In this document: positions 21,431-62,235 of the stretch, one piece after another | Layout: every line of letters begins with the position of its first letter | Position numbering within the stretch: position 1 is the first letter of the stretch | Source: Psammoneis japonica | Taxonomy: Eukaryota | Direction: 5' to 3' | Assembly: GCA_008632985.1 (NCBI GenBank) | Contig: QPGO01000034.1 | Location: 387,311-451,310, forward strand | DNA length: 64,000 nt | Program-made: the position numbers and the translations under genes | Notes under the pieces: model-generated | Database searches by the model: none | Told to the model about the DNA's origin: nothing | The model's input: the letters and a program-made list of their open reading frames with translations, nothing else

Positions 21431-22034
21431 TGTCACCGCACGGTAGAGACTGGATCGACAAATAATAGACTAATGTCATGATTGCACTGGCCTGAAGAGA
21501 ATAGAGGCATTTCGGCTAGACTACACGCACCTACATTCCGTAGGTGGATAAGTCGCCAAGCAGTCAGTTTCCCAGCCAACTTTAAGGCGTGAGCGCTTTC
21601 CGAGCTTCCGCCCTTCGTTAGCGCTTCGCTCAAATATTCGTGCATATCTATATTGTTTCTGCCCCCCAAAAGTCCACATACGGCATGTGAACTTTTTGAG
21701 AGAGGATACGGAAAGATGAAACATGAAAGGGGCTAAAAACAAACTATGTAACCAAAAGCGACTCGTTTCATTCAATTTCAAATTCAAGAACAACACATGC
21801 ATCAATCGAATCAAAACATGGTAACACAGACTCTAGCATCAAAGCGCTCAATCGATGAAGATGAAATTAGCAAACACTTCGCGCCCCGAGATTCAACATA
21901 AAAGTACTTGAAACTCAAACATCAATTGTTCAATAGAACGCTTCAAGTCAATACAGCCACAATAACAAAACTTGCAGGAGCCGGCAAGGACACGACGAGA
22001 GGCAGACGCGACAAGCCGTCACCGCAAAACTTCC

Positions 22035-28743: not shown

Positions 28744-28780
<37 letters not shown>

Positions 28781-29306
28781 CGAATGAACAAAATTGGTGA
28801 AGCCAGTTTTTCATCAAATGTGACTGACAAGAATGCAAGCAGCCAAGGTGGGAGCCACCAGCTCTCTCTCCTCTCTCCTCTCTGGCTTTGCGCAAAGCTT
28901 TCAGTTTTCAACAACCAGCAACTGACAGCACACAATTGGTGCAAAAATGACAGCCACAAAAATCAAATGATGCACAAAAAAACTCACCCCCCACCACAAA
29001 AAACTGTGACTGACACGCCTCATCACTCCCTGCTGAAAGAGCTGTTTTGTGCTTCTTTTCACAAGCAGAGCATGCTCCCAAATGTTTTTGTGGCTGCCAC
29101 CATTTGTCAAGCTGGAAATCTGAGTCCTCAGCTGAGGAGATGCAAGAGCTAGAGCAGGTGTGGGAAAGCCATGAAATGGGTGCAGCAACCTGCCTGCATG
29201 GTGCTGCAAGCCTGGGCACCTTCTCTCACACATGCTGGCACTGGCACGCCACTCAACTTTGTGTGCATGTTTGTGTGTGAGTGAGGAAATGTGCACACTG
29301 TCCTCT

Positions 29307-29545
29307 TGTTGGAACATTGGGGTGCAAGGCAATTTTTGCAGGACAGACAATGCTGCAGTGTGATCATTGATGATGTGGTGAATTTGCATTTGCAGCTCTT
29401 GTTGAGTTGTGGGTCTTGCACTCACATTTTAGCTTCAGCACCTGGCTGACATGGCAACAGTGGAGATGGCGCAACAGAAATGTGTTTGCAATCCACATGG
29501 CAAGTTGTTCAGGGATTGGGGAGACTGAGTGCACGCCAGTTGGCA
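29307..29545 (+). repeat. 5' LTR
   Basis: tgttggaacattggggtgc...gccagttggca aligns with 30813-31061. Confidence 0.8.
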
Positions 29546-30812
29546 AGCCATGAAATCCCAGTGCAGAAGCCAAAAATGCTGGCTGGGAAGTCATCAAAAG
29601 AATCCAAAGGTGCAACTCATGTCAGTGGATTGTGGTGGCAAACACGCCAGCTGGATCAAGACAAAAAGACAATCTCTGGAGGGCCTTGCTGTGAGGAAGC
29701 TGTCAAGGGTCTGCCAAAAAAGGGCATGACAGCAAGGTTGTGTCAGACTGGTGGAAACATGGACAAGAAACAAGCACAAAATGCAACTGAGCACAGAAGC
29801 ATGAAAGATTTGAAGGAGTGGGTGTGTGACACCATTGCAGAGTCAGGTCAACAAGCAGACAGTTGCACATGGAGACCATGAGAAAAACAGCTGAGAGTGT
29901 CAGAAGAATGTTTGGACTGGCAGAGATGCAGGTGCTGGTTTCTCCAAGGTGGGAGAACAAGCTGAAGGAGCTGGAATGTCCATTGGGTGATGCCACAATG
30001 GAGAAGGACAAGGCAGTCTGGGGGAAGCAACAATGTGGTCACTGTGTGAAGCAGGATGTGATCTACAAAATGCAGAAAGTGAGTGCATTTGGCATGATTT
30101 GTGGGACAGTGCATGAAAGCCATCCATCACAAGATTGAAGGACAGATGAAGTTTGAGAGGGTTGCAAAGGAGTGAGACATGGTGGTGCCATTGGAGCTCT
30201 CAAGTCAATCTTGTTTGATGCAAACAAAAGAGCCCCCACTGGCATGTCCAAGCAGCTGGGCTTAGAAGCAGTTGTTGCTCATTCACCAGGATGAAGGAGA
30301 GGTGCTCCACAAGATTGTTGCAATCCATTCATGATGAGCATTGCCAAGATGGCAGAAGGGTCCTGTGGCAGACTCGTCCAGGAAAAAGTTGCCAAAAAAA
30401 AGATGGGTTCTTCAGCAAGGATGCTGATGATGCCCGGAAGAAAGAAAGAAAGAAGCTGTTGGCAGCACTGCCAATGGAAGGTGCCAAGGAACATTGGCGT
30501 GTCTTGAAAGATCTGCACAGGTGTTGGACACATGCTGGTTCAACAAGAAACACGAGGGTGTGAACTTTGGGCAAAGCAAGAAGAAGCAGATCAAATGCTG
30601 GAAATGTGACAAGGTTGGGCATGTGAAACAGGATTGTTTGTTGCTCAATGACAATGATGATGATTGTTCATCAGTGGATTTGGGTGACACAGGCCACAGG
30701 AATTGGTGGAGTGCAGTTGAAGTGGCAAACTGGATGGCACAGTTTCCAAGTGTCATCCTCCTGTTGCCAGCATGCACAAGGTCAATCAATTGATTGCTTG
30801 TGCAAAGGAGTG

Positions 30813-31061
30813 TGTTGGAACATTGGGGTGCCATGCAGTTCTCACAGGACAGACAATGTTTCAGCAAAGGATGCACTGATGATTGTTGATGATGATGTGG
30901 TGAATTTGTGCACACAGCTCTTTTTGAGTTGTGGGTCTTGTGCTCACTTTTTGGCTCTGCACCCAGTTGACATGGCAACAGTGGCAATGGAAATGGAAAT
31001 GTGCTTGCAATCCATGGAGTGAATTTGGGGATCAGTGAGACCAAGCATGTGCCAGCCAACA
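30813..31061 (+). repeat. 3' LTR
   Basis: tgttggaacattggggtgc...gccagccaaca; has TGTTGG/CCAACA terminal inverted hexamers. Confidence 0.82.
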
Positions 31062-33179
31062 AACTGTGAACCCCCAACACCTCTTGAGTGGAGAATGGGT
31101 GCTGGCAGCCATTTTTTGATCATGATGTTGTTGTTGTCACTTGTTGCATTTTTAGAACATTGTCAAAAACTTTCCTTTCTCCCATGGATTGGCTTTTTTG
31201 ACATTGCCAGCTTGTTCCAGTGCCCCAGGTGAAACACACTCAACTCAGAGATGATTTTCTCATTTGCAGCACTCATGTTCAAGATCATTGTTGTCCACAA
31301 TGTTGCACCCCACAACACAGCCAAACAGCACAACACCAATGCTGGCACAAATCTTGAACTTTCACACCTTGTGTCAAAACAAAAACAGTGCCGTTGGAAC
31401 CACAGAATTTTGTTTCTTGATGCATGGGCACTGTCTCTCATTTTACATTCAGAAGTGCATGTGGGTGCCAGGCTTGTGGGTGGCTTCAACAACTTTCAAG
31501 TGCAAAGTTCTTTTGCACCCCAGTTGGTCAATCAACACATGGCACCATCACATCAGACACATCTGAAAAATGTTGCATGGATCCAATCAACTCAGCCATC
31601 CACATGATCGCCAACTTTGTGCAGGGTGCACAACAAGGCAGAAAAGTCCTTTGAGGGTGCAATGGCTCCATTGTTTTAACAAGAGCTGCACAGAGCTTTT
31701 CTGCTTCCTTTGGAACACACATGTCATGCTCACTTTGTGTTGTTGGCTGGCGCCACTTCTGCTGGTGTTGCAAAGTTGTGACAAGTTGTCAAAACAAAGC
31801 CACATGTGCAGCCACAGCAAGCCATGGTGACTTTTGTGTAAAAAATGCACACAGCTCTCCACACAAAGTTCTGAGCACTGACCAGCATGTGAAGCTCATT
31901 TTTACATGTTCAAAGGCACGAACAATTTCATCACTGGCTTCAACAAAGCACTCTGTGTGTTGGGAAAAATGCTGCTGACAAATTCATCGCATGATGTGCA
32001 AGCACCCACCAACAAAAACTTGTTCACTTGGCTGGAAGGTTTCATCAGCTTGTTGGATCATGAGGATGAACAAAACTTCACTTTCAAGATCAACAACTCT
32101 TTGTGTTGTGGTTGAAGTTCCTCTCCTCTGCTGGAACAAAAACAAGGCCCAAAGAAATTGAGTGCTTTCCAACACAGAGAAGAGGGCCTTGCCTGTGATG
32201 GAGCATGTGCTCATGTTCTTTGTGCAACAATCATTTTTGACGGAGGAGATCCAACCCCAACATGGAGAGTGTGCAAAACATCTGTCTTTGAGCACTTTTG
32301 TTTCATGTGGGTCTGGGGCAAGCCGTCTGCCAGCATTGTGCAACCCCCCGCCCCCTCCCAAGCTGTGTGTGTTGTGCCACAATCCAACAGCCAACACAGC
32401 TCTGGCAAAAGCTGGACAAGTCAAGTTTTTTCACTTTCAGAGTGTCCCAAGCCTGCAACCTCTGTTGTTGAGACACATCTGGCTGAACATGCAGCAGGAA
32501 GACAACGGTGGCAGCCTGTGTCATCTCATGAAGTTGAGCTCCAAAATCATTCTTCTGCAAATCCCAAAGAGTTGTCTTCTGTCTCTCAGAGCTTTTGGAG
32601 TGTCTCACTGGGATTGATGGCTAATCTCAGAACTGCTGGAGATGTCCACTTGGACAGCGATGCACTGTCCTTCTGGGAACGGAAGCGTGCAACCGTGGTG
32701 TCTGTCCGTCTTGCTTCCGCAATCGCGTTTTACGCCACGTGGCCCAACTGGATGAATTTGGGCAATGAGAGTTCAAGCTACAGCACCGGTACTTTCTCTA
32801 AGTAGATAGTTTTTAGAGTAACAAGTTTGAAAGCGACTAAAGCAGAGTACAGAGATCTCTTTTTACAGAGAGAATTAGCCGTATAGAATCGATAGATCTC
32901 TCTGGTTTGATGAAGATACGGACACAACAGCAGACGAGATCGATCGAGACTTAGAGAGCTGTAGAAACGAAAAGATGCTCCAAAACAGACTAGCCAACAT
33001 GGAAGTTCACGAGGATGGCGTGAGGAGCTAAGCTTGGCACGATAATCATTGATTTATCACGTGACAAACGTCCAACATCAGCCAGGACAAAAAATGCAAC
33101 TCTTCATCATCAACCCTGTCTAGAGTTTGCCATGATACTGTAAAGTCATGTAAAAACACAGTGCAATGACGGCAGCTCG

Positions 33180-39500: not shown

Positions 39501-41553
39501 CGTCAATGAATGGGAGCAAGTTCACGCCTTCCCAGGGATTTCGTTTCCCGTTCATGTCAACTTCGAAGTCTTGAGGATAAAATTTAATAATTGGCGAATC
39601 AGGCGAGGTCATCAGTTTGCGATATGGGAGAGGAACCAAAGCGGAAGACGCCGGAGGTAAACATCCCATTAGCTGCTCGAAAGGCAATAGCGGCTCTCCG
39701 ACAACGAATTTGATATCATTGAAAACGGTCTTCAAATTCGTCAAATCGCTTAACATTGGACCTGCAACACACGAGTAGCCACAATCATCGACGCAAAGAA
39801 TGAGTTCTGGATGCACACGCACTGATGTGTGGCTTTAGACAGAATCCTTACCGTAATGGTAGGGGAAGAACCACCCCCAGGAAATACAACCCCGATAATA
39901 ATAAGCGAGACACCACATGAGGCCCTCAATGTATGATTTACGCAGCGCCAAGTGATCGTTGATATCGACCGGAGTAAGCTTGAGCTTTTCGAAATAGTAT
40001 CGTCCCTTGAAATCTTTCTGTCCGGCTGTAGTCACTGGTTTCCATCCATCTACAAATTTACCATCATCTATGGAATGATTTGCGAGCATCGATTCAATCA
40101 TGGAAAGGTAGCCATTCTGCTTCTCTGCCTCTTCAGCCTTTAATTGGTCGTCACTGGGTCCCTCCGGCTTCCCGTCTCGTTTATCCCACCTCCGTTTCTT
40201 CTTGGTGTAAGCTGCCTCATTTTCTTCACGCTGTTCAAAAATATCTGTCTCCGCAGCCCCAATGACGGCAAGGAAAGCTTCTAATCGGTCTGGGTCACAA
40301 ATCTCGCCAGCGCTCGTCAAGTACACCCCGTCACCCCATGTTGGTCTTTGCGCCTTGTAGGTATCAAATAGCAAATCAAATGCTCCGTCACCGATGTCCA
40401 ACGACGGCATGTGAGGCAAGAAATCGTTCCCCACCAAGAAAGTCAAGAACACAACTAAACAAACAAGGAGAGAAATGAGTTAGAAATTAATACAAGAGCA
40501 TCGCCGACACGCACATGAAAGCTACGATACTCACAATCATCAATGAGCTGCTCCAAATTGTACGTCCGTTCGTCCAATCCGTATGCAAATTCAACTTGTA
40601 GATATTCCCGCAAGACCGATAAGTGCAAGAGCTGGAAATCCGATTCTTTGGTAAACTTCATCACCGTCTTGAGCGTGTTCTTGCTGTTCTGATTAAACCC
40701 AAAGTCGACAATTTCTCTCAACAGCGTAAAGTGCGGTTCGTGCGAGACGAGCCCAAGCATTATGAGATCTGCATCCTGCCCGTACATGCAGTGACGAGAA
40801 TTCGGTTGATAGCCCGGCTGACTTCTCATCTCCCGAATGTGCTGCATAATCTTGTGCTCTCCTTCTCCTGGCAGCTCGTGTCCCGAGAAAATAATCTGGA
40901 GGTCCCGCCAGAGGGGATCTTCCTTGATTTTCTTTCTAATAAAGTATTTTATCACGTTCGACACACGCGCCATAAACTCAGTTCCTGGTGTGATGCAGTT
41001 TGAGTCGAAAACACCCGATGTTGAATCCTCGTCCTTCGAAAACACTTTGTCTTTGGTAGCCTCTGCCAAATCCTTGGCGCTCCGAAACCGCCGAGATCGT
41101 TGCTGATTAAGTTTGGCACGTGGCGCGACGCCGTCAATTGCCATGAATACAGAGACTTTTGGTTTGACAATCTGCGTAATGATTCTATCTAGATAGTGCA
41201 TGATACCAAACATCATGTCCCGTTCGCTCAACACATCAGACACGTCCATGTGACTAGGATGAGTACAGCCGTGAATAATGCCGTTCATGTCTAGGTACAG
41301 ATGATCAAACTCGGGAAGGAGCGCCGAATCAGTCACCACCTGGTTGATCTTGGGGTACCGCTCACTGATCCATCGGTAAAACTACGGTGGAACAGAAAAA
41401 AGGTGGCAGCAAATGTTAAGAAAAGAGTTTGGCGGCTTGAAGCACACAGAGTACAATTCTACGTCTCAACCACTACACTGTGCCGATCTGCGATCTGCGA
41501 TCTGCATCTTGCAGCAGCGCGTCATGTTCAAACCGCACCTTAGGGACGCCCAT
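36534..41553 (-). CDS. XRN1: 5'-3' exoribonuclease 1 (about 5 exons)
   Basis: Spliced start MGVPK|FYRWISERYP; HLYLDMNGIIH, AIDGVAPRAKLNQQRSRRF, FDSNCITPGTEFM, PGEGEHKIM, GQDADLIMLGL, VGNDFLPH, PFEQLMGCLP. The C-terminal D1-D4/SH3-like region (LGDRIANL...IPFGARGTVV) indicates XRN1 rather than XRN2. Confidence 0.95.
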
Positions 41554-43982
41554 CGTTCGTCAAAACAAACTTAGCAGGGAAGTTAGGGTAGAGCTCTGTC
41601 TGTGTTGTCGGTCTACTCTCTAGAGGGCCTATTTTACGCCCCTAGTCATCTTGCACGTTCTTGGGTTCGACAAGGCAAGCAGCCGCAAGCAGGCATGGTA
41701 CCTGGTATCGTAGGTACGGTACAGGCAGCAGGCACGCACGTCTTGCGTCTTGCGCCTTTTGAGCAGCAAGGGAGAAGGACAGACGCTCCAGCCAACAACA
41801 GCCGGCCTTGAACGGACCGAATGCCAATGGCATTCGTTGTTGCAACTCGTCGCCGCCTGCCGAGGCCGCAGTGGCAGTTGTAATTTTGACAACGAGCAGC
41901 GACATACGCCATCTGTCATCGCCTCCAAAAACCTGCCAAGACAAGTGGTGGGAAAAAAAGGAGACCATCTGGGTGGCAACTGTGGCGCCACTTTGTCGAA
42001 TCGATGCGCCACAGGTGGGGCCGCTCCGATCCCTTCGGCTGGCATGCTTGAGCACCTTGTGGCATCTAGTGACATGGTGCCCAAGGTGTTGCTTGCTCTG
42101 GTCTTGCAGGCCCGTTGCTGCCGAGTCACCTGCATTCACCGCCCATCCATCCACACATTCGTGGCCCGGTCACAACCTTGCCCCGGGATGGCGAGACGTT
42201 TTGTTTTCACGGCAACATGTGGCCAGGCAACTTCATCAACATTCTCTGGCTGCCAGCTGACCCATTCGAGATTCTGGGCCTCCAAGTTGCACCAACAGTT
42301 GCCAACATGGCCACTTTGGAAGGCGGCTTGGCTGATGACAAACTCACCCCGCCCCAGACCGACGGCGTGCCTGCAGATGCTGAGTTGATCCGAGTCCAAC
42401 GCATGATGCAAGTGCCTCACGCCTGCACCCACCTCACACTTGACTGGGACCTCACACCATTGCAAGCCTGGTGTAAATTGGCAGGTGCCACTCAAAACGA
42501 TGGGCGTGCAGGAGACACAGCCCCTCTCATCGACTGGTTGCGTGCTGCCATCATGACACATGCTGCAGCCAATCCAGACCCTGTGCACTGTCTGGGTGAC
42601 CAAGGGGCCGCATTTCCACCCCTGGCCATTGACACCGGGCCACAGGAGCATCACTGGAAGATCCTCCTGCAAGACCCACCAGCTCCAGACACCACACCAG
42701 CGGTGGACAACACAGATCGGGTGCTTGCTTTTTTGCCAACATTGTTTGCACGGATGTGGCCCACACCAAAGCCACACACACCGCTGCTGCAGCCACCACC
42801 ACAGCACCCAAGACTCCTGCAGAAACATTCCCTCAGACCACACCAACCTGGCTGCTTCTGTCCAGTGCACCAGCCGACCCTGCTCTTCCCAAGCTCTGCC
42901 AGCTGTGGCCCAACAGCACAGACGCACGAGCCCAGGAGCCAGATGCAGTGCCAAGCATGGTGCCAATCATGTCCAAGGAGCTGTTCAAAATGGTGCTCCA
43001 AGGCAAGGTCGCACCTCACGCACATCAGAGGAATGACCTCAGCACCAGCGTCTCCCCACTCTCTTGTGGGTTCTTCATGGGAGGCAAAAGCTCAGCCGCC
43101 CAGGCTCGGGCTGAGAGGCATGACTTGTCATTGGCAGGCCAAGAGCAATTCTGGACAAAGGACACACCCTTGCCCACCACCACGTGTTGCTGTGGTGGCA
43201 TGTCACAAGGCATTGCCAGCCAGCCTGGTGCTTGATGTGATCCAAGGAGTCAATCACCTGCACACCGCAGCATGCCATGACTTCTGCATCAACAACTGGT
43301 GTGACATGGTGGACCTGTTGGAGCAGTCAGGGGCCTTGGTCATGGAAGGAAATGTTTTGCCGCAGATCTGTCATGAAGTTCAGATTGTGATGGGTGTGTG
43401 CTTGTGCCGCCTCACACAAGGAGCACTCCCATGTGTCCCTGGCCATGCAGCAGTCACCTGCAAGGTGCTGCATGGCCAGTTTGCCTTGTTGGCTGGTCCT
43501 CCCACGGCACCTGTTGGACACGAGTCCCAAACCAACCAGCAACCCGCAAGCTGGAAGCACTGCCAAAGATGGAGCAGCTGGAGCACCGCACCTTGACCCG
43601 GGAGCAGCCGTCACTGACCCTGCACCAGTGAAGGCCTGGCTGTGCACCTTCACCCAGGCCAAGGTCTGACTTGCTTCCATCCAGCGATTTGTGCCAAAAA
43701 CCATGGACCCGACCAGAGCCCAGTGCAAGTTGTGCCTTTCACACCACTTGAAAGGCACCTGCTTTGAAAATTGCAAGCAGTGCAACACCCACCACAACCT
43801 GACACCATGGGAACACACCAACATGAGCGCCTTTGTGCGCACACATCTCCCAAACCCACAGGATGGAGGAGCCCCAATGCCAGCACCAGCCCCGGTCCAG
43901 CCTCCACCTGAGGTGTCTGGCCAGTGAGTCCTTGGACCCACCTGCAGCCCTCACCTGCTGATGCACCTGATCTGCACCAGCA

Positions 43983-45200
43983 GTGTCCGCAGAGCAACAA
44001 AAACTGGGTGAGTCAGCAGCTGAGAGCATTTGTCTCTTACAACAGTCAGGCTGGTCCCAGTGCATTCAACACTTGCACAGAGAGTCTTGCCTGGCAGAAT
44101 CAGTTGGCAACCTGCCACACCCAGCTGCCGGGCTGTTGAAAAGCCTCCGTGACAATGAAGCACCGGTCCAGTTCAACATCAATGACTGGCCCGACACCAA
44201 GGTGCAAGAAGCTGTCAATCATGGCAGCCACCCATCCACTCGAGACCACTTGGGGTTCCTCAAAGACAACATGGCAGACATGATGCGGTGCCACCATTGG
44301 GTTGTGCTGCTGCCACACTCCATTGCCAAGGACCTCCCACATCTTCACATGTGGCCCATGGGCATTGTCCCACAACGGGACCAACGTCCATGCACAATTG
44401 TCGACTGCAGCTGTTGTGGTCTCAATGATGACACTGTCAAGCTCACACCTCCTGATGCCATGCAATTTGGACATGCGCTGGACAGGGTCCTGCGCACCAC
44501 ATTCCAGGCTGATCCTTCATTTGGTCCAGTCTGCATGATGAAACTGGACCTGTCCAATGGTTTCTGTTGGGCTGGCCTCCAACCTGAGGACACACCAAAG
44601 CTTGGCATCGCCTTCCCGGTGGGACCCGGGGAAACACCACTTGTGGCCTTGCCGCTGGTCCTTCCAATGGGCTGGAATGAGAGTCACTGTTCTTTTGCAC
44701 CAGCACAGAAACCATCATTGACCTTGCAAATGCATGTGTCAACATGCCTTGGGACCCACCCATTCACCATCTTGAGGCGGTGGCATCAGTGCCGGCACCG
44801 CCATTGGACACACTCCACATTGACGCACCTCCTCTCAATCTGCAGGCCGCTGCACACCGGGTTTTCAACAACTCCCGAGTCCTTGATCAATGTGTTGGAA
44901 CAGGCGTTGCCATTCTTGTCCCACTTGCCATTTCAATGTCTACATTGATGATGAAATTGGCATCACCCAAGGCAGCAAGGCAGAACTCAATTGCCCCTGC
45001 ACTGCCACCTGCTGCACATCAATGACCAAGTCTTTCAGCTGAACACCATCTCAGACAAACACTGGCACCGTGAAACGGTCTCCCTGAAAAACCTTTTCAA
45101 AGGTGATGCCTCTTGGTCCACCATCAAGGTCATTTTGGGTTGGATCGTTGACCCCTTGGCAGGAACCATCAAATTGCCCCCACACTGGCAGCAGCACCAA
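43983..45200 (+). pseudogene. Reverse transcriptase remnant of the Ngaro-type element
   Basis: PPDAMQFGHALDRVL, GPVCMMKLDLSNGF, LPMGW, frameshifted NVYIDD, KGDASWSTIKVILGWIVD. Confidence 0.88.
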
Positions 45201-45349
45201 CTGCAGCATGTTCCCCGCCTGCATTGCACACCAGGACCAGCCAACCTGCTTGCCAACACATGCTCTTGCAAATTCAGCACCAAGAGTCTAACCTCCTTGC
45301 CACCTTGTCTTCCCTTGCACCTCAGACAAAATCTTGGAGAATGCAAAGC

Positions 45350-46516
45350 CCCTCTAATGCCATCATTTCTGCACTGACCTCCACCTTGCAACAGCAAAAG
45401 CAAGGCAACCAAGCTGTCACTGAAGAGCAAGCCTGTGCCACGGACTCCGTCTGGTCAAAATGCTGGCTCCCATTCTCATCTGACATGGACATTGCAGACC
45501 CTCTCCTCCATGGCACTGATGACAAAATCCTGATGCTCCATGTCTTTGCCCATTGCCTCAGGGATGGATGCCTCAGCCGCAGTGGCAACCCATCTCAGCT
45601 CCACATGTTTGTGACAAAATCCTTCACATCATGAAGACTTGCGCTGAACTGGGAGGGGGCCTGGACCCTCAACTCCCCTCCAGTGGTTCCACATGGATCC
45701 ACGGCCAACACGACTCCACAGCGCATGTGGCAAAGACGACCCACCACCAAACCATGTCAAGCCACTGCCAATGCAAATTGTGCACCATGCACAGGCCATG
45801 GTGGAAGCCAACCCTTCGAAGTTCAATGAAGCAATCATTGACTTGTGTTGGATTGGTCTTTTCTACCTCCTTTGCCCAGGCAAGCATTGCAAAAGCACTG
45901 ACAATGCACCACTGGTGCTTGCCAATGTCAAGCTGCTGGTTGGTCAGCAGCCATTAGACCACATGTCCTGTGACCTCAATCAACTGCTCATGGCCACCCA
46001 CAGCAGCATCACATTTGACACACAAAAGAGCTGCAAGCACGGCAAAGTCATTGGCCATGACTGCAGCTTGCACTCCAAAGCTTGCCCAGTGCTTGCACTT
46101 GCACGATGCATCCGGCACCTGCACTTGCAGGGTGCCAGTCCTTGAACTCTGCTCTGTGCCATCTGCATCTGCAACCACTGGACTCATGTTCAAAGCAAAT
46201 CCATCACCATGACCTTGCAAGTTTCCACAGCCGTTCTCCCCCACTTGGGGTTTTTGCCAAAAGGCGTCACTGCCTGCAGCCTGCGGGCCGGCAGTGCAGT
46301 GGCCTTGCTTTGTGTCAAAGTCGACACAAACATCATCCGACTGGTTGGGCAATGAAAATCCGATGCTGTGTTTTGTCACTTGCGTGCACAAGCTCTCCCG
46401 CTTGTCACTGGTTTGTCTGCAAAGATCTTGAGTCATGGCAATTTCACCCTCTTGCCTGGTGCCAAAGTGCCTGCTGGTGCCCAACGCCCAATCGACCAAG
46501 CCAATCTTGCTGCCTG
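45350..46516 (+). pseudogene. Tyrosine recombinase remnant of the Ngaro-type element
   Basis: Box I IIDLCWIGLFYLLCPGKH; box II SLRAG...GQ*KSD with an in-frame TGA. The catalytic Tyr position reads CAC (46377-46379). Confidence 0.88.
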
Positions 46517-46989
46517 ATCCAGCCCACCCTCGGCTCTGCCTCTTGTCCAACCCTTTCCTTGTCTGCCCTCCAAGTTTGGCAGTGGAGGCGGTTCTGGGCT
46601 GAGGAGCTGTCAACCCCAGCAAAGCATGAAGCCACCAAAACTGCCACCAACCAAGTGGGACGAACTCCCAAGCAGCGCAGGTGGCATCAGCCATTTGAGC
46701 AGCAAGGGAGAAGGACAGATGCTCCAGCCAACAACAGCCATGAATGGACCAAATGCCAATGGCATTCGTTGTTGCAACTCATTGCCGCCTGCCGAGGCCA
46801 CAACAGCAGTTGCAATTTTGACCCACCTCTCCCACCCTGGGCTGCCTGAGGAGGCAGTTCTGAGCCAGGGAGCTGTCAACCCCAGCAATGCCTGAAGCCA
46901 CCAAAACCACCACCAACTGGGCAGGATGAACTCCCAAGCAGTGCATGTGGCATTGGTCACACGCGCCTTGTGCACGCCTCTTTCCAGTG

Positions 46990-47342
46990 GCAGCTCCCAA
47001 AAGTCTGCCCACTTTAGAAGTCTGCCCAACTGAGCAGAATCACATGGAAGTTCCCAGCATGTTTGTTTGTCTAATCTACACCTTGTGTCAGTCTGCACAC
47101 AAGAATCTGGTGCGTTTTGCACACAACAAATCCCCAAAAAGTCAAAAAAATTGTTGCAATTCCATCGCATGAGTTGCACACACAAAATCACGTAGAAAAG
47201 TCCTTGGTTCATGAGATGTGCTCAGCACAAGAATTGTGTAGAATCTGCATCCCAAAAAGGCAGACTTTTGGGGCAGGAATCAGTGCATCTCTGCAGGAGG
47301 GCATCTGTGTGACTTTGGAGTGGGCAGACTTTTGGGAGCGGC
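46990..47342. mobile_element. MITE-like element with 24-bp terminal inverted repeats
   Basis: gcagctcccaaaagtctgcccact (46990-47013) is the reverse complement of 47319-47342 with one mismatch. Partial subterminal copies near 47018 and 47259. Confidence 0.65.
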
Positions 47343-49490
47343 TTCCTGCATGTGCAACCTGTGCAGCACGTGCCACTCATGGCCCCACACTGCTTGTGCA
47401 TCATTGACCACATGGCTGAAGCCTTCATTTGGTTGGATTGCATGTCACCTGCATTTGTTGTGCACACGGGCTGGGTGGGCAGGTCGGGTGCCGGTGCAGT
47501 GCGGCGGCGCTGCACGGCAGCAGCTGTGCTGGATGGAGACAGCCAAGTGGAGTGACATGGTGGAAATGGGAATGTGGGGAAAGTTGTGGAGGTGCAGGGA
47601 GAGAGGCAGACAAGAAGACAGAATGGGCAGATTGCTGCATGCCATGTGGAGTCCGAACCCAGAATGGGAAATCTGGAACTCTGATGATGTGTTTAGTTGG
47701 CTGTTGTGTCTGCATCTGATGTGCTGCAGGGATTGCACCTGCAGGTCTGGAGTTGTGGGGCAGCTCTTGTGTCCATCACCGGGTGCATTGCCACAGATGT
47801 TGTCCCAAGCTTTGCACCTTGAACAAGGCTGCAAAACAACTCTGACTTCCGCAACATGTGACAGACCAGCCACTGCACAGATGCTGTCTGCCATGTGCAC
47901 ACATGTGCATGCCTGTCTTTGTGAGACCATCTGCACATTTTCTGGAGATGGACAGGACAGATGGATGATGGACGGGACATGATGATGCACACATGCATGT
48001 GGTGCATGTGTCTTCAGGTGACGGTCTGCACATGTTTTCAGGGGATGGACAGGATGGGTGGGATGGATGATGGATGGGATGGATGAGATGGATGGGACAA
48101 ATCAAACTTCCATCTGAGCAAACCACCAAGCAGTCAATGAAACTTCCATCTGACTGGACCACCAAGTGGTCAATGAAACCTGTGACTCCTCCTCCAGCCC
48201 TCAACTCATGGGTGATGCAAGGGAAGATGCACAGACTCTCAGTGCATTTTCTGCACAGGAAAACTTTCATGGTTCTTTCCTGTGGTGTCACACTGTTGTG
48301 GGAAATTCTGAGTCATGATTGGAGATTCATGGGACAAATGGTCTGAAATCTGTCTTTTTGATGACGAAACAACACAGTGAAGCATGGGGAACCAGGGCAC
48401 TCTTTGGACTTCATGGTCTCAAAATGTGGCAAGGCACGTGAAAGTGTCTTGACCACAACTGAGCTCAACAGAACAATTTGTGCCTGCATGGCCATGAGAG
48501 ATGCTTTCACCTGCCCTGCCAGATTTTAAGATTGTGGCATCTAAAGAGTGCCACAGTGTGGGTGATTTTTGATGTTTTCTGGCTTGGCCTTCTCCACAGA
48601 AACACAGCACAGCTTCTACACAAATTTTGAATTTTGATCTTTGTTTCAACTTGGATCACCACTTTGGAAAACAGCCACCAACTTGACATTGTGGGCAAGC
48701 AAAAAAGCAGCTGCACCCTTTTCAAAATTGTTCACCTCCTCTGAAGCTTTTCTTTTGTGTGTGCAACATTGCCACCATGCAGCACTGCAGTGTGGTGGAA
48801 GCCAACTTTGCAACCCACAAAGTGCAAAAAGGAGAAAATGCTGCATCAAGGAAAAAATGTTGCTGGGCTGACAACCACAAAATGTTTTTTCTGTCTGGCA
48901 AGCCCCGTGGCTCAACATCAGGATGTGAGAAACAGGTTGCCTGTTTTTGACATTGGATTTCTTGTCTTGTGCATGGCTGCTGGTGTTGCACAAAAAAAGC
49001 ATGGGCTTTGAGGACTTCAAATGTCTCAAGAACATGCTCATGATCAACAAGGAGATTTGTCGTGTTGCATCGTCACAAAGATGAGGCAACTCTGCAGCTG
49101 TGGCTCACACACCTCGAGCTTTGCTGCATCACATGTCAAAAATGGGTGTGAAAAGGAACTCTCACAAGGAGGACAACAACAAGCAAGTGCAGGACTGAGT
49201 GAGGAGGTGATGACAATGATGTGAAATGTGACACCACAAAGCATTTGCTGCCAACTGTGCTGGATCCTTTGTGGGCTGCCAACACACCATTGTGGTCAAG
49301 TTGATCAAAGAGAGGCCTGTGACGCAGAGATGAAAATTCTTTGAGAACTGTGCCGAGCTGGCCCACCACCAGTCTTGGTTTGCACCATGGATGAATGTCC
49401 AATGGAAATGCCAGACTGCTGCACATGTCTCTCCGTCCATCAATTTTGTTTGACAACAACTGTTTTTCTTGTGTTCCGACAGTCATGGTG
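47343..49490. other. Remainder of the TpA/CpG-depleted block, with GGATG-rich repeats (about 47945-48100) and a 36-bp tandem duplication (about 48104-48179)
   Basis: Composition; aaacttccatctga...accaccaag...tcaatg is present twice. Confidence 0.7.
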
Positions 49491-49749
49491 ACCTTTTACA
49501 ATGCCTTGTGTTCATGAAGATAGACACAGCCGGCGAAGCGTGCAATGGATGTTTCACCACAGGAAGCTGGCCAAAGACACTTATTCTAAGTGTTACGCAG
49601 CATTTGTCAAAAGGCATGAGGAGTCGTCGCTTCTCATGTTCAGTTGTATGAACATAGATTCTAATAAAGGAGAGGCGATTCGGCAGGCATCGGGTGAAAG
49701 TTCGACTAATCGCACTTGTCCAAAACATCTCTCCTAAACGTTATGTCAG

Positions 49750-51927
49750 TCAGTGCATTTTGCGATTCATTCTACCTGGTATCACGTCTAGCGGCTTCTC
49801 AGGTAGCTGAAATGAGCGATCTTTGGTTGAGGCACAATCTTGAATGCATATCTGAACCGTCTCTTCACCTCTTTTCATCCTTCCGTTGGGACCTCCACTT
49901 ACATGGAAACTTTGACGGAAACTTGCTCGAATCCATCTAGCAGAATCAAAGCAGCAGGAGCAGAGATAAGAAATGCACTAGACAATTTTCACAACAAATT
50001 CTCTGACCATGGAGCACTCACGCCCAAGTGTCTTCATCTTCGTTACCCTGCGGATCGACCGTACAAATCTTGTACTCAGTTGAAGCCTTTACCGAAATCT
50101 TGACAGCGGCCTTGGCTTTCCCACTTTTGGCGCGCAAAAAAGCAACACGTTGACGAAGCCCTCATTATCAACCCCCTGTCTTGAGGCATATTTATTCAGT
50201 GAAAGAGGACCAATGTCTGCCTCGAGTTCGCCGTTTCCAACGGAACCTTCAGCTTCGTCCCGCAAGCTACGTCGTATCTTGCTCACAACTGTTTTTGTCA
50301 AAGAAGGTGATCTCGGTGGATTTCGCTCAGTGGCATCCTGGAATGATTGGCCCCATAAGAATAACTTGTCGTCATCGTCAAAACCTATTTGCCGATCTTT
50401 GGTGCCGTCGTTCATCAAGATACTCAGCACAACGCGCACAGATTGCTTTTTATGCTCTCCATCCAATGGCTTGGCAACAAATATTTGAAGACTTGCGTGT
50501 TCTAAAGCCATTTGTCCGCGCAACCCATGTGGACGTGGTTGCGCTTTTTCATAATAACTCAACGTCCCCTCCGACAAAACAAAGTACCTTTTCTTCCACG
50601 GTTTCTGAGCTCTACTACGTGTTTTCATCCACCCACATAGATCATTTGCGTTGTCGTTCCTGTCGTCGACCATTGGTTCCACTTTTATGGACAACGGCTC
50701 TGCTTCTGTCGTGCTGGGACACAACACCGCAAGCACTTGGTTCTTACACAACGTGTCAACACAAAAGTATGAATCCCCCCCGCTTCTTGTGCGGTTTCCA
50801 GCCAACAAGACATCGCGAGCATAGGAAAGAGCTTGAGATTCCGTCACGGTGTTCTTGCCAGTAGGATAGGCATTGTTCTGGTCAGCAAAAGACCGGTCCA
50901 ACATCATGATTGATCGCGCTAAGGCCCCGATGATCTTTTCCGGGCCGTGCCCGCCAGCACCCCGAAAGAGTTCGTCGTTGATACAAACAGAATCACGCTG
51001 TAAGTCTTTGAAAAGCTGGTCGACCCCAAGTGACGTGTTTTCTTCGAGAAAGGAGCGCTCCTTATGTTCCGTAGACAATCGTTCTGTCCTTTCTCTGATC
51101 CATTGTACTGGAACTTCAATTGACTGCCCTACAATGATTCCAAGGGCAGCGACGTACTCGTCCTTCGTGGTTGATTCTCGGACGTTCGTTTGCACCATAA
51201 GGTAATACTCCAAGTCCTTCTTGTATGGCGACTTTGGAGAAATCACGCTATTTGTACGTCTTCCCAAATGGTGAGTCGTGTCCGATTCCCCGCGAATCAC
51301 TGAACCACCCACCATGGCGTCCCTTATTGCATTAAGCCATGCCTGACGTTCGTCGCGAGAATTAGCCAAAAACAGTTTTTTCGGGCGTCCTTCCACAGCA
51401 ACTTCAAAGACGGCGCCAACTCCACCAGGTGACTTTTTTCTTACCCCTTGCACCTTGACTTTCCGCAGTGTACAAGTGTTGGCGTGCAGTGCCACATTTT
51501 TCCTGATCAGCCGCTGTTCCATGTCTCTGTTGGATATATCATTCTCATAGTAGCTCAAGAGTCCCTTACGAACTTCGACATACTTGATTTTCCAAGTTCC
51601 CCGTAAATGAGATGCTTTCTTCAGGGGACCGGCCTTGATGGTGTTGGGATCGTTCATGTCAACCTCGATGCCACTGTACGTGTCTCGTTGCGACAATAGT
51701 TCCAGGATGGCTTTGAGAAAGATGCGGTGTTCAGCTACATAATTGAGGGCTGTGACACGGGATGAAGCATCCAGCATCGTCGATTCCATAAGATCCTCTC
51801 TCACCGACTCTGCACGTTCCAACTTTTCTATTTGATCGTGCAATTTACCAATCGATTCTTCTTCTCCCGACGAGTCATCTTCGTAAGCTGCTGGTGGCCG
51901 GTAATCGTCTTCTTCTGAAACATCCAT
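49750..51927 (-). CDS. Double PH-domain protein (apparent 1-nt frameshift near 50160; intron 49937-50021)
   Basis: PH1 KAGPLKK...WKIKYVEVRKGLLSYY...ERQAWLNAI; PH2 CGWMKTR...WKKRYFVLSEGTLSYY. A protein-like continuation (VKASTEYKICTVDPQGNEDEDTWA|WIRASFRQSF...) is in a shifted frame with a canonical intron. Confidence 0.82.
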
Positions 51928-54390: not shown

Positions 54391-57300
54391 TCATCTACGA
54401 GGACCTCCAAATGGATTTGGCGCACTGAATGGTGTGTTCCCTCCCGAGCTTCCGCCCCCAAACGGATTATTGCCTCCGCCTGTCTCATGAGAAAAACGAC
54501 AGTTAGCTCCGTTCCGGCATCTTCCTTCTGCAAAAAATTTACAAGGTCTGGTGTTTGCCTTGCCTCTACCAAAGCTGTTGTTTCCGCCGAACGGTTGGCT
54601 ATTCTGGGAGCCGCTCCCAAAGTGAGTAGAAGCTGTGGTTCCACCCCCTCCAAAATTTGGAGTAGATTGCGCATTCCCACCAAATGGATTGGATTGCGCA
54701 CTGGTACCGAATGGTTGAGATTGGGTTGCGGTACCGCCGAAAGGTGACGACTGCATTGTGGTACTGGCCGTCCCAAAGCCTTGTCCCGCCGTTCCCCCGA
54801 AGGTACTATTCTGAGACGAACCAGGACCTCCGAATGGAGTGCTGTTAGTCACAGTGTTGGAAGTTCCGAATACTGAGTTTCCACCGCCGGTCGCAAAAGC
54901 ATTGGCAGTATTGGTTCCACCAAAGGGAGATGCGTTGTTGTTCATTGTACCGAACGGGCTGGATGTGGCTGTGCCACTTGTAGTTTGCATGTTCCCTCCC
55001 CCAAAAGGGGATGCCTGAATAACACCACCACCACCACTACCACCGATTGAGCCATTTGTGTTGGAGAGAGCCACGCCGCCAAAAGGAGTAGTTCCGGTAC
55101 CGGACATCTGCTTTGACCCAAAAGTAGTTGCGTTCGAGGCCGATCCAAACGGAGTTGAGTTCATCGTATTATTTGAATTGGCTTGAGAGAAGGCAGGCTG
55201 AACCGCGTTCTGAGAAGATGCACCAAAAGGGCTCGAAGCTGCGATTGGGGATTAGACTCGGTGCTCATGTCTTGCCCAAAGGATTCAGACAGAGCCCCCT
55301 TGCGATTTGTGCTCCCGAATGGGTCGGTCGCCGCAGCAGCAGGCGTTGCTGTACCTCCAAACGGAATGCTATTGGGAGCAGTTGATGGAACACTGGAGGA
55401 ACCCGTTCCAAAGGAACTGGAGCCAGTTTGATTGGAGGTAAACGGACTGGTGCTGGACACTGTAGAACTTTGTGCGACTGCATTACTGGTTGCGGCAGTA
55501 GAGCTTGAAAACGTCGATTCAGTGGTGGAAGTACTGCTGCTGTCATACAGCTCTGGGACTGCGCCAGGCGGTAGACTGCATGCGAAACTGTCAAACCCAC
55601 CTGACACAAGCTTCTTAAGGCGAATGGCGCTGGGTTGGCCAATTGTTCCTACATCTAAGCGATTGACGGTATCGCTCATGATAACGTCCAAATGCCTCTT
55701 GAATTCCTCAGGATATTTGTTAGCAAGCATATTCCCTGCTCCTGTAAGGAATGCATCCAGGACTGGAGCCGTGAGGAGTGGTAAAGGTGAATCTGGGGGT
55801 GGTGGAAGAAGATTAAGGAATCTTTCTAGCCAGTCAAGAGCTCCTTTATGCCCACCAAGCAACATGTGATTGGATGGACGAGACGCCATGATTTCCGCCA
55901 CCATTGAAATAGTATTCTGCATTTCGCGAAGTTCAACAAAGAGTGAGAATATGCACGGACGAAACAAAGACAATCGATGAAATGCGACTGCAGCCTAAAT
56001 GAATAACACTGTACCTCAGTTCTTCCTAGAAACTTTTCAAAAGTTTCGTTCTCTGTCATACCTAAAGACGCCATTAACTCTTCTTCACTTGAGTTAGCGG
56101 ACGGCCGTGGGAGTGTCGGGATTGCCATTGGACATACAGCGTAAATGTGCGCAGCAAGCATTGGTGCCAGCTCCTTCGCCTCAATTGAGACTGCAGCAAG
56201 CATTGCCGCGAGAGGAAAACCATCGCCTTGAAGTCTGCACACGAATTAAGGAACAGGCATCTAATGAGTAACATTGTTTGTTGCAGAAAATGCTCACTGC
56301 AAAATGTGATACTCACCCGCGAAAACTTTCAGCCTGGACTCGAACAATTACATTGCTCGATAAGAGGTCTACGAAGTACCGTTTTCCCCTTGACATGTCA
56401 CTTGTGAATTCGGATGCCCCAGAAAGAATCTGCTGCTTTATTTGTTCGTCTTGAGCTCTCGCTTCACTGATTTGTGCAGAAACATCTGCAGCGATTGCCT
56501 TCACCTTTCCGGCGTCATGGCTAAGGGTATTGAGTTTGCCTCTCACCGTTTTCTTCATGTTAAGACGTCGCTTGGACACTTGAGGCACCTTCAGTTTCTC
56601 AAACGGCTCGACCGACTTCCGCACATCAGCTAGTTTAGCCACCAGCCGATTCGCGCGAGCCACATACTCTGTCTTCTGCGCCTCAGCCTCTTGCTTTTTC
56701 TTTTCTTTTGCTCGCGCAGCTGCTCTGGCGGCTTCCTCGGTTTCTTTCGCTTTCTCTTCCTTGGCTTTCTTTTCCTTTTCTTTCTTTTCATTCCTTTCTT
56801 TCTCAGCGGCCGCCTCTTTGGCAATTTGCTCTCGCCGCTTCTTTTCCGCTTCTTCTCGGGCTTCCTTCTCCTTTTGTTCACGAAGGATAACCTGGCGAGC
56901 GTCCGCCTCGTCTCGCTCCAACAGGTTTCGGAGGGTGCTCGCCGAATTTTGTTGAACTTCTTTTGCTCGTGCGCGTTCAAGTTGTGCTTGCTTTTGAATT
57001 TCCCCCAGTTCATGATTTGCTGCGTTGGCAAGAAGCCACATTCTTTTACCGACATCTTGGTGTTCGTCTGTTTTTGAGTTTAACCAGACGCTCTCCCCAT
57101 CACGATCTGCAACAGTCGACGCCTCTAGAAGCGATGCCAGCTTATCCATACGTTCTCGGTCACCGTCATCGTGCCGGCTACTCGAGTAACACAATAGCGA
57201 CTTTGTTGGTGCTGTGTATGGACTTATGTAGGAAGATATGAGAGGAAAGGATTGCTGGGAATCCTCTTTCCTCAATTCCGGTGGCCTCGCTAGCATTTCC

Positions 57301-57560: not shown

Positions 57561-57989
57561 TGCAATGAATTAAATTTTATACCCACTGCGACCTAAGACG
57601 CTTCTCTAAGACGTTCAATGAGAGAATTGAGTCGTACCGACGCCTGAATGACAACACTATTGCTCTGAGCTCCTTCGCGTTGGGTGTTGTTCATTGTGTC
57701 GCCCGATCGGCGGAAGTAGTACCGGTAGTCGTTGCTGTCGAAAACTGCAGTACTGTATGACATGAAACGCAAAAACCAAAACGCTCTCGCGTGCACTCAT
57801 CGCGCTCGCTCATCTCGCTCGCTCGCTCGCGCGCTCACTACTGGGGCGAACGTTAGCTATCGTCTGTCAGTAGTGCGTCAATCCAGTGCCATGTGCCGCG
57901 GCAGACAGCAGCACACCAACTCGGGATTATTTTTCTGACGGAAGAGACAAGATGTGTGCACCCATGATTAATCCGCATACATCCGACCT

Positions 57990-61975: not shown

Positions 61976-62235
61976 GACTATGTCGGTGATGAATTACCCT
62001 CTTGCAGCATACACATGGAAGCGAACAAGCATCAGCTCGCTCTGTGCAGTACCTTGCCTTGAACGCCATCGTTTGTGAAGGTATCTGCTACCAGTCCATC
62101 AGCTTTCCGATGCGGGAACAAGGAAAACGAGCAAATGTCATAGGCCAGGCGGGGTAAGAAAAAAAAGCGGGTTAAGTAGTAACAGTAGAAAAGATGATGA
62201 TGATGTCCAGCTTGCTCCTCCATCTCGAAACTAGA

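Follow-up and report, generated by a model that had tools for sequence, protein, structure and literature searches.

What process has stripped the dinucleotide TA from parts of this diatom locus, and which DNA does it strike? In the 64,000-nucleotide stretch of Psammoneis japonica contig QPGO01000034.1 analysed here (hereafter the window), four blocks at 1-7134, ~28226-32621, 41721-49496 and 57979-61978, ~23.5 kb in sum, have observed/expected (o/e) ratios of 0.02-0.04 for TA and 0.06-0.28 for CG, with TG and CA about doubled (o/e 1.7-2.0), while the intervening diatom genes and unique DNA are normal (TA o/e 0.55-0.63; CG o/e 0.94-1.02, that is, about 1.0). TA occurs 0-5 times per kb within the blocks versus 20-60 times outside them, and the longest TA-free gap in unique DNA is at most 290 bp. 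Block edges are sharp, with normal host genes between them, and about 95-98% of TA has been removed within these sharply bounded domains, whose GC content (0.45-0.58) stays close to that of the surroundings. The share of pyrimidine-purine steps is constant (0.2406 in the blocks, 0.2366 in unique DNA and a median of 0.239 in 80 related elements), which matches transitions interconverting CG, TA, TG and CA, and therefore conversion instead of loss. The blocks also have less AT and more of the GC dinucleotide, with AC and GT the same as elsewhere, as predicted for changes of RTA to RCA and of TAY to TGY (R, purine; Y, pyrimidine), and the two strands are symmetric (TG and CA make up 0.1137 and 0.1130 of dinucleotides in the blocks).

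The blocks differ in what they contain. No protein family was recognised in block 1 (1-7134), which retains 17 TA, 14 of them in YTAR context, and whose 635-bp tail (6500-7134) has zero TA and a CG o/e of 0.5. The 198 bp at 28028-28225 are TA-free yet normal in CG, TG and CA, which is within chance, so that block 2 begins near 28226; it extends to 32621, includes an internal pair of direct repeats, C1 at 29307-29564 and C2 at 30813-31080, together with a forward-strand frame (30431-30790) with a weak match to a CCHC zinc knuckle, and is probably the remnant of an LTR-type retroelement. Block 3 encompasses a verified Ngaro element and the DNA directly to its right (46961-49496; TA o/e 0.05, CG o/e 0.20). 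Block 4 (57979-61978) has 5 TA in 4 kb and includes a segment, 59677-60343, present at high copy number in the read set (word depth 759); like block 1, it has no recognisable family. At least two blocks are retroelements, and within this window foreign or mobile DNA is affected and the rest is normal. The first-pass annotation had described a repeat-targeted hypermutation best seen in the Ngaro element: the depletion is indeed there, but it is not special to Ngaro, since four blocks show it, and the targeting holds for transposon-derived DNA, with targeting of repeats and targeting of silenced or foreign DNA not separated here.

Ngaro elements, part of the DIRS-like group, encode a reverse transcriptase (RT) followed by a tyrosine recombinase and are defined by split direct repeats ordered A1 ... 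B1 A2 B2. Judged by its sequence organisation, the forward-strand element at 41758-46960 (A1, open reading frames, then B1 A2 B2) is a decayed retrotransposon of this type. Its 5,203 bp hold 10 TA, 130 CG, 516 TG and 657 CA, which bears out the initial remark that TA is scarce across about 5 kb next to genes with normal levels; CG loss is the less complete of the two (CG o/e 0.27-0.65 versus TA o/e 0.03-0.11). The position expected of a gag-like ORF1 is taken by a stop-free frame of 507 codons without a single Tyr (42073-43593, forward), for which no family was recognised. It is followed, also on the forward strand, by an RT remnant (43971-45206) that corresponds to about residues 2-418 of relatives of ~800 amino acids and has 133 homologues at E≤1e-3, and by a tyrosine-recombinase remnant (45648-46517) with two in-frame TGA stops. 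Among 80 related loci, the recombinase was matched by tblastn in 52, downstream of RT in most. The present copy departs from a typical Ngaro in being dead, with in-frame stops and the catalytic Tyr turned to His, and in that the C-terminal half of the relatives' pol protein had no match in the window by tblastn mapping.

The coding damage follows the dinucleotide pattern. Over 333 conserved columns of RT and recombinase (the latter aligned from 48 of the 52 matching related loci), Tyr is kept at 0 of 6, four having become Cys or His; Arg is kept at 11 of 33, and 16 of the 22 changed columns now have His, Gln, Cys or Trp; and Ile is kept at 5 of 12, with changes that include ACA three times and ATG once. 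In the recombinase remnant alone, conserved Arg now reads Cys four times, His four times and Gln twice. The individual Tyr replacements proposed at the outset hold up against alignments: the Cys codons of IVDC (TGC, 44406) and NGFC (TGT, 44565) stand in columns that are 97% and 100% Tyr in 60 homologues, that of GPVC (TGC, 44532-34) in a majority-Tyr column of a 30-sequence alignment, and both the His of CPGKH (CAT, 45885) and the recombinase site that had been named catalytic (CAC, 46377) in columns with Tyr in 100% of 48 homologues. On the sense strand we thus see both Tyr to Cys (TA to TG) and Tyr to His (TA to CA). That intact relatives might already be TA-poor and encode Cys or His at these sites is not what we find: all 80 metagenome Ngaro-like loci have ordinary ratios (TA o/e 0.45-0.84, CG o/e 0.60-1.10), and Tyr is present in 120/120 of the longer homologues among the matches listed and in 148/148 representatives. 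Hypermutation was found in 0/80 related loci and in 0/268 related proteins from other organisms, which is weak evidence because such searches favour intact copies.

The split repeats date the changes, as repeats of this kind are made identical at retrotransposition. A1 (41758-41890) keeps most of its CG and one TA (41881), whereas in A2 (46694-46822) CG has decayed to TG/CA and the TA of A1 reads CA; the difference pointed out earlier at this site, GTTGTAATTTTG in A1 and GTTGCAATTTTG in A2, is real. The two are 97% identical in a self-BLAST of purine/pyrimidine (R/Y)-recoded sequence and 88% identical by nucleotide alignment, and B1 (46584-46694) and B2 (46850-46960, the right end of the element), likewise forward, are 97% identical in R/Y and 79% in nucleotides, with several TG-versus-CA swaps. 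Across 114 aligned pyrimidine-purine steps, 76 are concordant, 22 are TG-versus-CA, 11 are CG-versus-TG/CA, 3 are CG/CG and 2 are TA-versus-TG/CA. Transitions fall at 57 of 228 pyrimidine-purine positions and at 23 of the 239 remaining ones (odds ratio 3.1, p 1.3e-5), the latter a sizeable background of 9.6%. The repeats differ almost only by pyrimidine-purine transitions, so the changes were made in place, on both strands and after insertion. For most of the TG/CA-discordant sites the ancestor could be CG and not TA; direct evidence of TA ancestry comes from 4 columns each of Tyr and Ile, the 2 repeat sites and the overall depletion.

The loss of TA depends in its own way on the flanking bases. 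Among the 52 surviving TA, 33 are YTAR, 18 mixed and 1 RTAY, and their densities in the blocks relative to unique DNA are 0.197, 0.037 and 0.004, respectively (chi-square p 6e-16); for CG loss, the flank class had no effect (p 0.18). A TA followed by a pyrimidine, equivalent to a purine before TA on the other strand, is lost about 3 times as fast per strand, and a model of independent strands fitted to the YTAR and mixed classes predicts ~2 RTAY survivors, where 1 is seen. The products agree with this: YTGY plus RCAR number 1596 and YCAY plus RTGR 1187, against 1611/1202 predicted with a strand bias of 0.75 and 1493/1320 without bias, and the product ratio of the Ngaro element against its relatives is 1.23, that of the ancestral proxy being 0.91; unique DNA and distant relatives serve in this model as mere proxies for ancestral composition. 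The first-pass claim of a second process, beyond deamination of 5-methylcytosine (5mC), that turns TA into TG/CA is supported by this signature, which CG loss lacks, and the context preference that it called for appears as transitions at TA, on both strands and post-insertion.

Several readings would do without such a process. One is that modified CG and TA were called as TG/CA in the assembly, and the affected steps are indeed the two self-complementary pyrimidine-purine dinucleotides, with CG against TG/CA in 16 of the 40 listed mismatches of the window to contigs of X1, a public read set that may share the assembly's sample and whose library type is not on record. These differences run 8 each way instead of in one direction, however, and a TA to TG difference is seen just once. 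X1 contigs (word depth ~50-60) reproduce the TA-poor sequence of the Ngaro element at ~99% identity and host genes near-perfectly (0-3 differences per 1.4-2.3 kb), and such depth, with such precision at 31-letter words, speaks for accurate reads. Errors caused by base modification, moreover, do not take the form of indel-free, clean transitions at ~97% of sites, so that an artefact is very improbable. We give even less credence to the view that the elements themselves were selected for avoiding TA and CG, for example as a means of evading a host nuclease or sensor. CpG and UpA are under-used by many viruses and some elements, but native avoidance is already contradicted by the destroyed catalytic residues, the ordinary composition of 80/80 relatives and the divergence of the repeats of one element at these very sites, and four unrelated blocks are alike with sharp edges. 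Only slightly less remote than an artefact is A-to-I editing of the retrotransposon RNA by an ADAR- or ADAT-like enzyme, fixed through reverse transcription and integration. At least two blocks being retroelements would suit it, as would the U favoured by A-to-I editors before the edited A (10.64898/2026.01.13.699255). It predicts A to G on the sense strand, present at insertion, and is contradicted by strand-symmetric products, with both kinds of Tyr change on the sense strand and TG and CA rising about equally, and by the post-insertion divergence of the repeats in TG-versus-CA swaps and a TA-versus-CA site.

Known decay pathways account for part of the pattern at most. Ascomycete repeat-induced point mutation (RIP) likewise consists of context-specific transitions made in place on both strands, riddling transposons and destroying genes, but it converts C:G to T:A mostly at CpA, creating TpA and lowering GC, whereas here TpA is destroyed and CpA/TpG created; with TpA near-absent, CpA/TpG raised and GC like that of the surroundings, the direction is opposite to that of RIP, a process that depends on duplicated sequence and operates in a premeiotic phase. 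Decay of methylated CpG, by contrast, explains the CG to TG/CA half and the replacements of Arg by Cys, His and Gln, and its signature is present to judge from the CG o/e of 0.06-0.28, the Arg changes and the 11 CG-versus-TG/CA repeat sites. It fails as the whole cause, because C to T changes cannot remove TA and CG loss, less complete in Ngaro, is without the flank dependence of TA. Relevant passages of Hoguin et al. (2023; PMC9998398) describe DNMT5-dependent methylation of diatom transposons, and DNMT4, related to RID, in many but not all diatoms. In animals, APOBEC (C to U in DNA) and ADAR (A to I in RNA) are also deaminases that hypermutate mobile elements and favour certain neighbouring bases, ADAR, like TadA-type enzymes, preferring U/T before the edited A, but they work before integration, on RNA or the minus strand of the cDNA, and are strand-asymmetric, unlike the strand-symmetric, post-insertion signature of the diatom.

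The closest parallel comes from the chlorarachniophyte Bigelowiella natans, and renders outdated the first-pass statement that no mechanism with this signature had been described. In a 2026 preprint (Mettrop et al., bioRxiv 10.64898/2026.01.13.699255), whose main text we draw on here, 230 of 231 mutations in two inserts of integrated giant-virus and virophage DNA are A to G or T to C, all at TpA, giving TpG or CpA by strand; only foreign or silent DNA is hit, the genome being otherwise normal, and TpA-poor, CpA+TpG-rich clusters are enriched for reverse-transcriptase and DDE domains. Besides the host, a diatom in our case, the differences are that the rate was measured there in mutation-accumulation lines, whereas we see the end state alone; that depletion there is mild (Rho TpA of 0.45 in a viral insert, TA still 3.3% of dinucleotides), whereas ours is near saturation; and that CpG decay accompanies TA loss and a 3'-pyrimidine preference is found here, whereas the main text of the preprint does not state such a preference and contains 'CpG' zero times.

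The account we favour has two separate context-specific transition processes that would act in place and on both strands of transposon-derived diatom DNA: ordinary decay, by which methylated CpG becomes TpG/CpA, and a faster, TpA-specific A:T to G:C hypermutation that would turn TpA into TpG, or CpA read from the other strand. That a TpA-directed process acts in place is the proposition we hold with most assurance; the two-process account as a whole also appears likely. TA loss is real, set against normal relatives, and consists of transitions on both strands, post-insertion and with their own flank dependence, seen in one window of one organism. The TA process would be enzymatic, aimed at silenced or foreign DNA and of the same kind as that in the B. 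natans lines. As its most likely chemistry we tentatively propose that a TadA/ADAT2-like deaminase would turn adenine in DNA into inosine; enzymes of this family naturally act on the U-A-C of the tRNA anticodon loop. Passages of PMC12265680 give UACG as the site edited by wild-type TadA and TA/UA as the preference of evolved TadA editors. Rather unlikely, in comparison, is that the same in-place process attacks thymine or reflects biased repair: the T of R-T-A could be oxidised or otherwise modified to 5hmU/5fU by a TET/JBP-like enzyme and mispair with G, or a heterochromatin-specific repair could settle TpA lesions towards G:C. 5-Formyluracil does mispair with G, and the 5hmU of dinoflagellates is enriched at TpA. 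On the opposite strand the favoured site reads R-T-A, and both strands are hit equally; sequence alone cannot distinguish A from T as the attacked base. Neither such a modification nor such an enzyme is evidenced in the window, however, and both the documented TA/UAC preference of TadA-type enzymes (PMC12265680, same passages) and the sole experimental precedent, which in its main text proposes adenine deamination (10.64898/2026.01.13.699255), speak for adenine.

The consequences are also practical. TA-free DNA has TGA as its sole stop, which gives decayed transposons long but spurious open frames on either strand (130 stop-free frames of at least 90 codons in these blocks); base composition masks both processes, as one raises GC and the other lowers it; and copies drift apart so quickly that they escape ordinary repeat finders and tandem-repeat tools, though not a search of purine/pyrimidine-recoded sequence.

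To our knowledge, A:T to G:C hypermutation at the DNA level was unknown as a defence before that one preprint, and what is new here is a saturated diatom case of this very recently described kind of hypermutation. The signature points to a DNA-editing genome defence, reported once before, in an unrelated alga. A second case would mean that it is not one alga's quirk, and would offer a route to the enzyme by comparing the gene complements of species that have the signature with those that lack it, the preference for TAY serving as its biochemical fingerprint, in a major phytoplankton group that is partly genetically tractable. With the same signature measured live in a chlorarachniophyte, such an immune system would span distant algal branches. 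In our judgement the chances are even that diatoms possess an enzymatic defence that edits A (or T) at 5'-TA-3', best at 5'-TAY-3', in silenced transposons, erasing TpA to saturation independently of CpG methylation, and that this DNA-editing immunity, a functional mirror of fungal RIP, is common to distant stramenopile-alveolate-rhizarian algae.

In a 1-kb sliding count, four blocks of the window (block 1, 1-7134; block 2, about 28226-32621; block 3, 41721-49496; block 4, 57979-61978) contain 0-5 TA and 0-25 CG per kb, with TG + CA at up to about twice expectation. Across blocks 1 to 4, the observed/expected (o/e) ratio is 0.04 (17 occurrences), 0.04 (11), 0.04 (18) and 0.02 (5) for TA, 0.06, 0.11, 0.28 and 0.12 for CG, 1.99, 1.94, 1.73 and 1.88 for CA, and 1.69, 1.80, 1.99 and 1.84 for TG, as against 0.63, 0.62 and 0.55 (TA), 0.94-1.02 (CG), 1.09-1.16 (CA) and 1.06-1.14 (TG) in the three stretches of unique, gene-bearing DNA. 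The edges are sharp: TA ends at 41720 and 57978, and returns at 7135, 32622, 49497 and 61979. As several blocks share the depletion, the decayed Ngaro retrotransposon at 41758-46960 in block 3 is only the best preserved of several affected elements. A TA-free zone at 28028-28225 was considered as a spread past block 2 and rejected as chance, CG, TG and CA being normal there; unique DNA holds seven TA-free gaps of 212-290 bp.

The structure of the Ngaro element emerges once the window is recoded into purines and pyrimidines, so that transitions become invisible and split direct repeats stand out: A1 (41758-41890) and A2 (46694-46822) are 97% identical when recoded and 88% in nucleotides, and B1 (46584-46694) and B2 (46850-46960) 97% and 79%. 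Homologues of the reverse transcriptase (RT) frame (43971-44945) number 133 at E<=1e-3 and are proteins of ∼800 residues on contigs of ∼5-6 kb, several of them from named diatoms. The frame is followed by a tyrosine recombinase (45648-46517) that is matched in 52 of 80 related metagenome loci. This position of the recombinase after the RT, together with the order A1 - ORFs - B1 A2 B2, is the Ngaro layout. The copy is dead, with in-frame TGA stops, a pol match that ends early (at about residue 418 of the ∼800 in the relatives' protein) and replaced catalytic residues, and roughly 0.7 kb, corresponding to the RNase H part, seems to have been deleted; just ∼440 bp (45206-45648) lie between the pol remnant and the recombinase. 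Recoding also reveals internal repeats at 2728-3225, with offsets of ∼45-50, 105, 147, 251 and 297 bp and 83-90% identity, which ordinary Tandem Repeats Finder (TRF) and exact-seed repeat finding on the window did not detect; TRF on the recoded window gave hundreds of meaningless arrays and was discarded, as its scoring does not work with an alphabet of two letters.

The TA- and CG-poor composition of the Ngaro element was acquired, not inherited, judging from its relatives. All 80 related loci have a TA o/e of 0.45-0.84 (median 0.645) and a CG o/e of 0.60-1.10, the lowest 1-kb TA o/e within any of them is 0.29, and Tyr is present in 120 of the 120 longer homologues listed and in 148 of 148 representatives, so that the relatives are neither natively Tyr-free nor TA-poor. 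The RT frame of the window has no Tyr and, compared with its homologues, about 4.6 times the share of Cys, about twice that of His and about half that of Arg. Of the 333 columns conserved at ≥70% in the RT and recombinase, 194 are unchanged; the six conserved Tyr have all been replaced (now TGC, TGT, CAT, CAC, one Leu and one Phe), 11 of 33 Arg are kept, with 16 of the 22 changes leading to His, Gln, Cys or Trp (CGN->CAN/TGN), and 5 of 12 Ile are kept, the changes including three ACA and one ATG (ATA->ACA/ATG). The Tyr losses that the first-pass annotation had read from the motifs IVDC, NGFC and GPVC are borne out by the homologue alignment, and at its two recombinase sites, 45885 and 46377, Tyr occurs in 100% of 48 homologues. 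Hypermutated relatives, either Tyr-free or TA-poor, number none among the 120 longer homologues listed, the 148 representatives and the 80 metagenome loci; with searches biased towards intact genes, and with 80 of the 263 confirmed loci retained, the prevalence of the process can hardly be judged from this.

Two processes, not one, lie behind the loss of TA and of CG. The 52 surviving TA in the blocks comprise 33 Y-TA-R, 18 mixed and one R-TA-Y, against 288, 847 and 465 in unique DNA, giving block/unique density ratios of 0.197, 0.037 and 0.004 (chi-square p 6e-16), while surviving CG show no effect of flank class (0.185, 0.183 and 0.241; p 0.18). Per strand, loss of the adenine of T-A-Y (or of its partner T in R-T-A) is about three times as fast as in T-A-R; from a fit to the Y-TA-R and mixed classes, about two R-TA-Y survivors are expected, and one is seen. 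The products lean the same way in all four blocks, with 1596 favoured-strand forms (YTGY + RCAR) against 1187 others, where a bias of 0.75 predicts 1611/1202 and no bias 1493/1320; in the Ngaro element the ratio is 1.23, compared with 0.91 in the 80 relatives that serve as ancestral proxy (range 0.62-1.23). The T-A-Y preference also accounts for the lowered AT, raised GC and unchanged AC + GT of the blocks. Where the two losses differ, that of TA is the more complete: the 5' end of the Ngaro element (41758-42540) has a CG o/e of 0.65 and a TA o/e of 0.11, against 0.27 and 0.03 in its remainder, and 6500-7134 has a CG o/e of 0.5 and no TA. Y-TA-R makes up 14 of the 17 surviving TA in block 1, the oldest-looking block, and 9 of 19 in the Ngaro-containing block, which fits a process that continues over time. 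The proposal of a second, TA-removing process besides deamination of 5-methylcytosine is thus supported by the flank effect seen for TA and absent for CG.

The changes arose in place, after insertion and on both strands. In elements of this type, every round of retrotransposition rebuilds the A and B repeats, which therefore begin as identical copies. Across the A and B pairs and the C pair of block 2, 114 pyrimidine-purine steps could be aligned, of which 76 are concordant (TG/TG or CA/CA), 22 have TG in one copy and CA in the other, 11 have CG against TG or CA, three are CG/CG and two have TA against CA or TG. A TG-versus-CA swap is expected where the two copies of an ancestral CG or TA have resolved independently, and swapped steps amount to 19%, with ∼21% expected if 43% had once been CG or TA (the unique-DNA share, used as proxy). 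Transitions affect 57 of 228 positions in pyrimidine-purine steps and 23 of 239 elsewhere (odds ratio 3.1, p 1.3e-5). The balance of products between the strands in the blocks (TG 0.1137 and CA 0.1130 of dinucleotides), with both Tyr->Cys and Tyr->His on the sense strand, rules out that the sense RNA was edited before integration. GC-biased gene conversion was rejected as the cause, since CG is lost and neither AA nor TT shows depletion. The share of pyrimidine-purine steps is 0.2406 in the blocks, 0.2366 in unique DNA and 0.239 (median) in the relatives, so bases were converted, not lost.

Miscalling in the assembly, with reads carrying TA where the window has TG or CA, was checked against the public sequencing run X1, in which 81% of the words sampled from 40500-50400 are present. 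Its contigs (word depth ∼50-60) differ from the host genes at 0-3 positions per 1.4-2.3 kb and span the Ngaro element at ∼99% identity (11 differences in 1,344 letters, 11 in 744 and 24 in 1,758), so that X1 holds the same TA-poor sequence. Words of 31 letters at this depth and accuracy point to accurate reads; the library type of X1 is not recorded, and X1 may stem from the assembly's own sample, which makes it less than fully independent. The 40 differences listed comprise 16 of CG against TG/CA, eight in each direction, four positions that form two TG/CA swaps, one TA->TG at 45865 and 19 elsewhere, which looks like allelic or copy variation produced by the same processes, unlike one-directional miscalling. 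The TA at 45864-45865, in a TAC where relatives have Phe, is one of the ten that remain in the Ngaro element; the X1 contig reads TG there, possibly a TA->TG change caught live as it segregates among alleles, copies or strains.

X1 word depth reaches 759 at 59677-60343, 187 at 41668-42334 and 102 at 46337-47003, and is ∼55-60 elsewhere. In the genome, many copies of these short parts of the depleted blocks remain near-identical; the remainder of each element shows single-copy depth, in line with rapid divergence of copies. The loss of TA leaves TGA as the sole stop codon that either strand can contain, and the blocks hold 130 stop-free frames of at least 90 codons (e.g., 507 codons at 42073-43593 and 332 at 60006-61001 on the minus strand), all rich in Cys and His and devoid of Tyr, which gene callers could take for genes. 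A Pfam search of these frames returned nothing beyond one chance-level match and a weak zinc knuckle (E 0.0013) that falls short of the cut-off, and recognised no family for blocks 1, 3b (46961-49496) and 4.

The window is nuclear DNA of the diatom: its poly(A)-binding protein (PABP) shares 73-77% identity with the PABPs of pennate diatoms (e.g., Seminavis, Cylindrotheca, Nitzschia), and the remaining long frames are ordinary eukaryotic genes (XRN1, PI3/4-kinase, KH, PH and helicase domains). Contigs of a second run, X2, omit 85, 98 and 82 letters at 49937-50021, 55917-56014 and 56235-56316, with ends CT..AC; these are short GT..AG introns of minus-strand genes, and X2 therefore behaves like a transcriptome. 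It does not cover the depleted blocks, and a third run, X3, gives no cover at all; neither is recorded as RNA. The host-gene stretches 26339-26489 and 56672-56804, one of them within the PABP gene, are 84-87% alike in purine/pyrimidine coding, probably through shared low-complexity coding sequence, and 56737-56804 was also flagged as a skipped repeat when reads were placed on the window. The AT-rich intergenic region 20500-22000 (GC 0.44) has the highest TA o/e of the window (1.07-1.30), the opposite extreme to the blocks.

Diatom transposons carry CpG methylation via DNMT5 (PMC9998398), and the CG half of the pattern would be the well-known mutational decay of methylated CpG. For the TA half, A->G or T->C is required, and deamination of cytosine yields neither; its specificity, sharp domains and near-completeness speak for an enzyme that targets silenced or foreign DNA. 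Deamination of adenine to inosine by a TadA/ADAT2-like enzyme would be the most likely route, since the target of wild-type TadA is U-A-C-G in a tRNA loop and TA/UA is favoured by the evolved editors (PMC12265680), matching the T-A-Y preference. Thymine modification or biased repair would leave the same trace.

A literature search found no diatom report of TpA-directed hypermutation, and the accessible text of a Phaeodactylum tricornutum mutation-accumulation study gives CG, CC and TG as mutagenic contexts and never mentions TpA (PMC6604790). The first-pass annotation knew of no described mechanism with this signature; one is, however, described in a 2026 preprint on Bigelowiella natans, according to whose main text two integrated viral regions accounted for 231 of 302 nuclear mutations in mutation-accumulation lines, 230 of these 231 being A->G/T->C, all at TpA, at a rate of ∼6e-7 per site per generation (10.64898/2026.01.13.699255). 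It further reports TpA-poor, CpA + TpG-rich clusters and coding sequences enriched in RT and DDE domains, proposes an ADAT2 homologue as candidate enzyme, and in its main text mentions neither CpG nor diatoms nor flanking bases (10.64898/2026.01.13.699255). The diatom case is the same kind of process, seen here as an end state in one window: depletion is mild in B. natans, going by that text, and at saturation in the diatom blocks. It adds a second, distant host, retrotransposons as verified targets, a 3'-pyrimidine preference, and a TA loss that coincides with CpG decay yet is separable from it. Fungal RIP is a functional analogue of opposite chemistry, as it creates TpA. Within one window, and with the ancestral state read through proxies, the hypermutation of repeats from TpA to TpG/CpA is confirmed as an observation and supported in its interpretation; it suggests a widespread DNA-editing defence and gives a handle on its enzyme.
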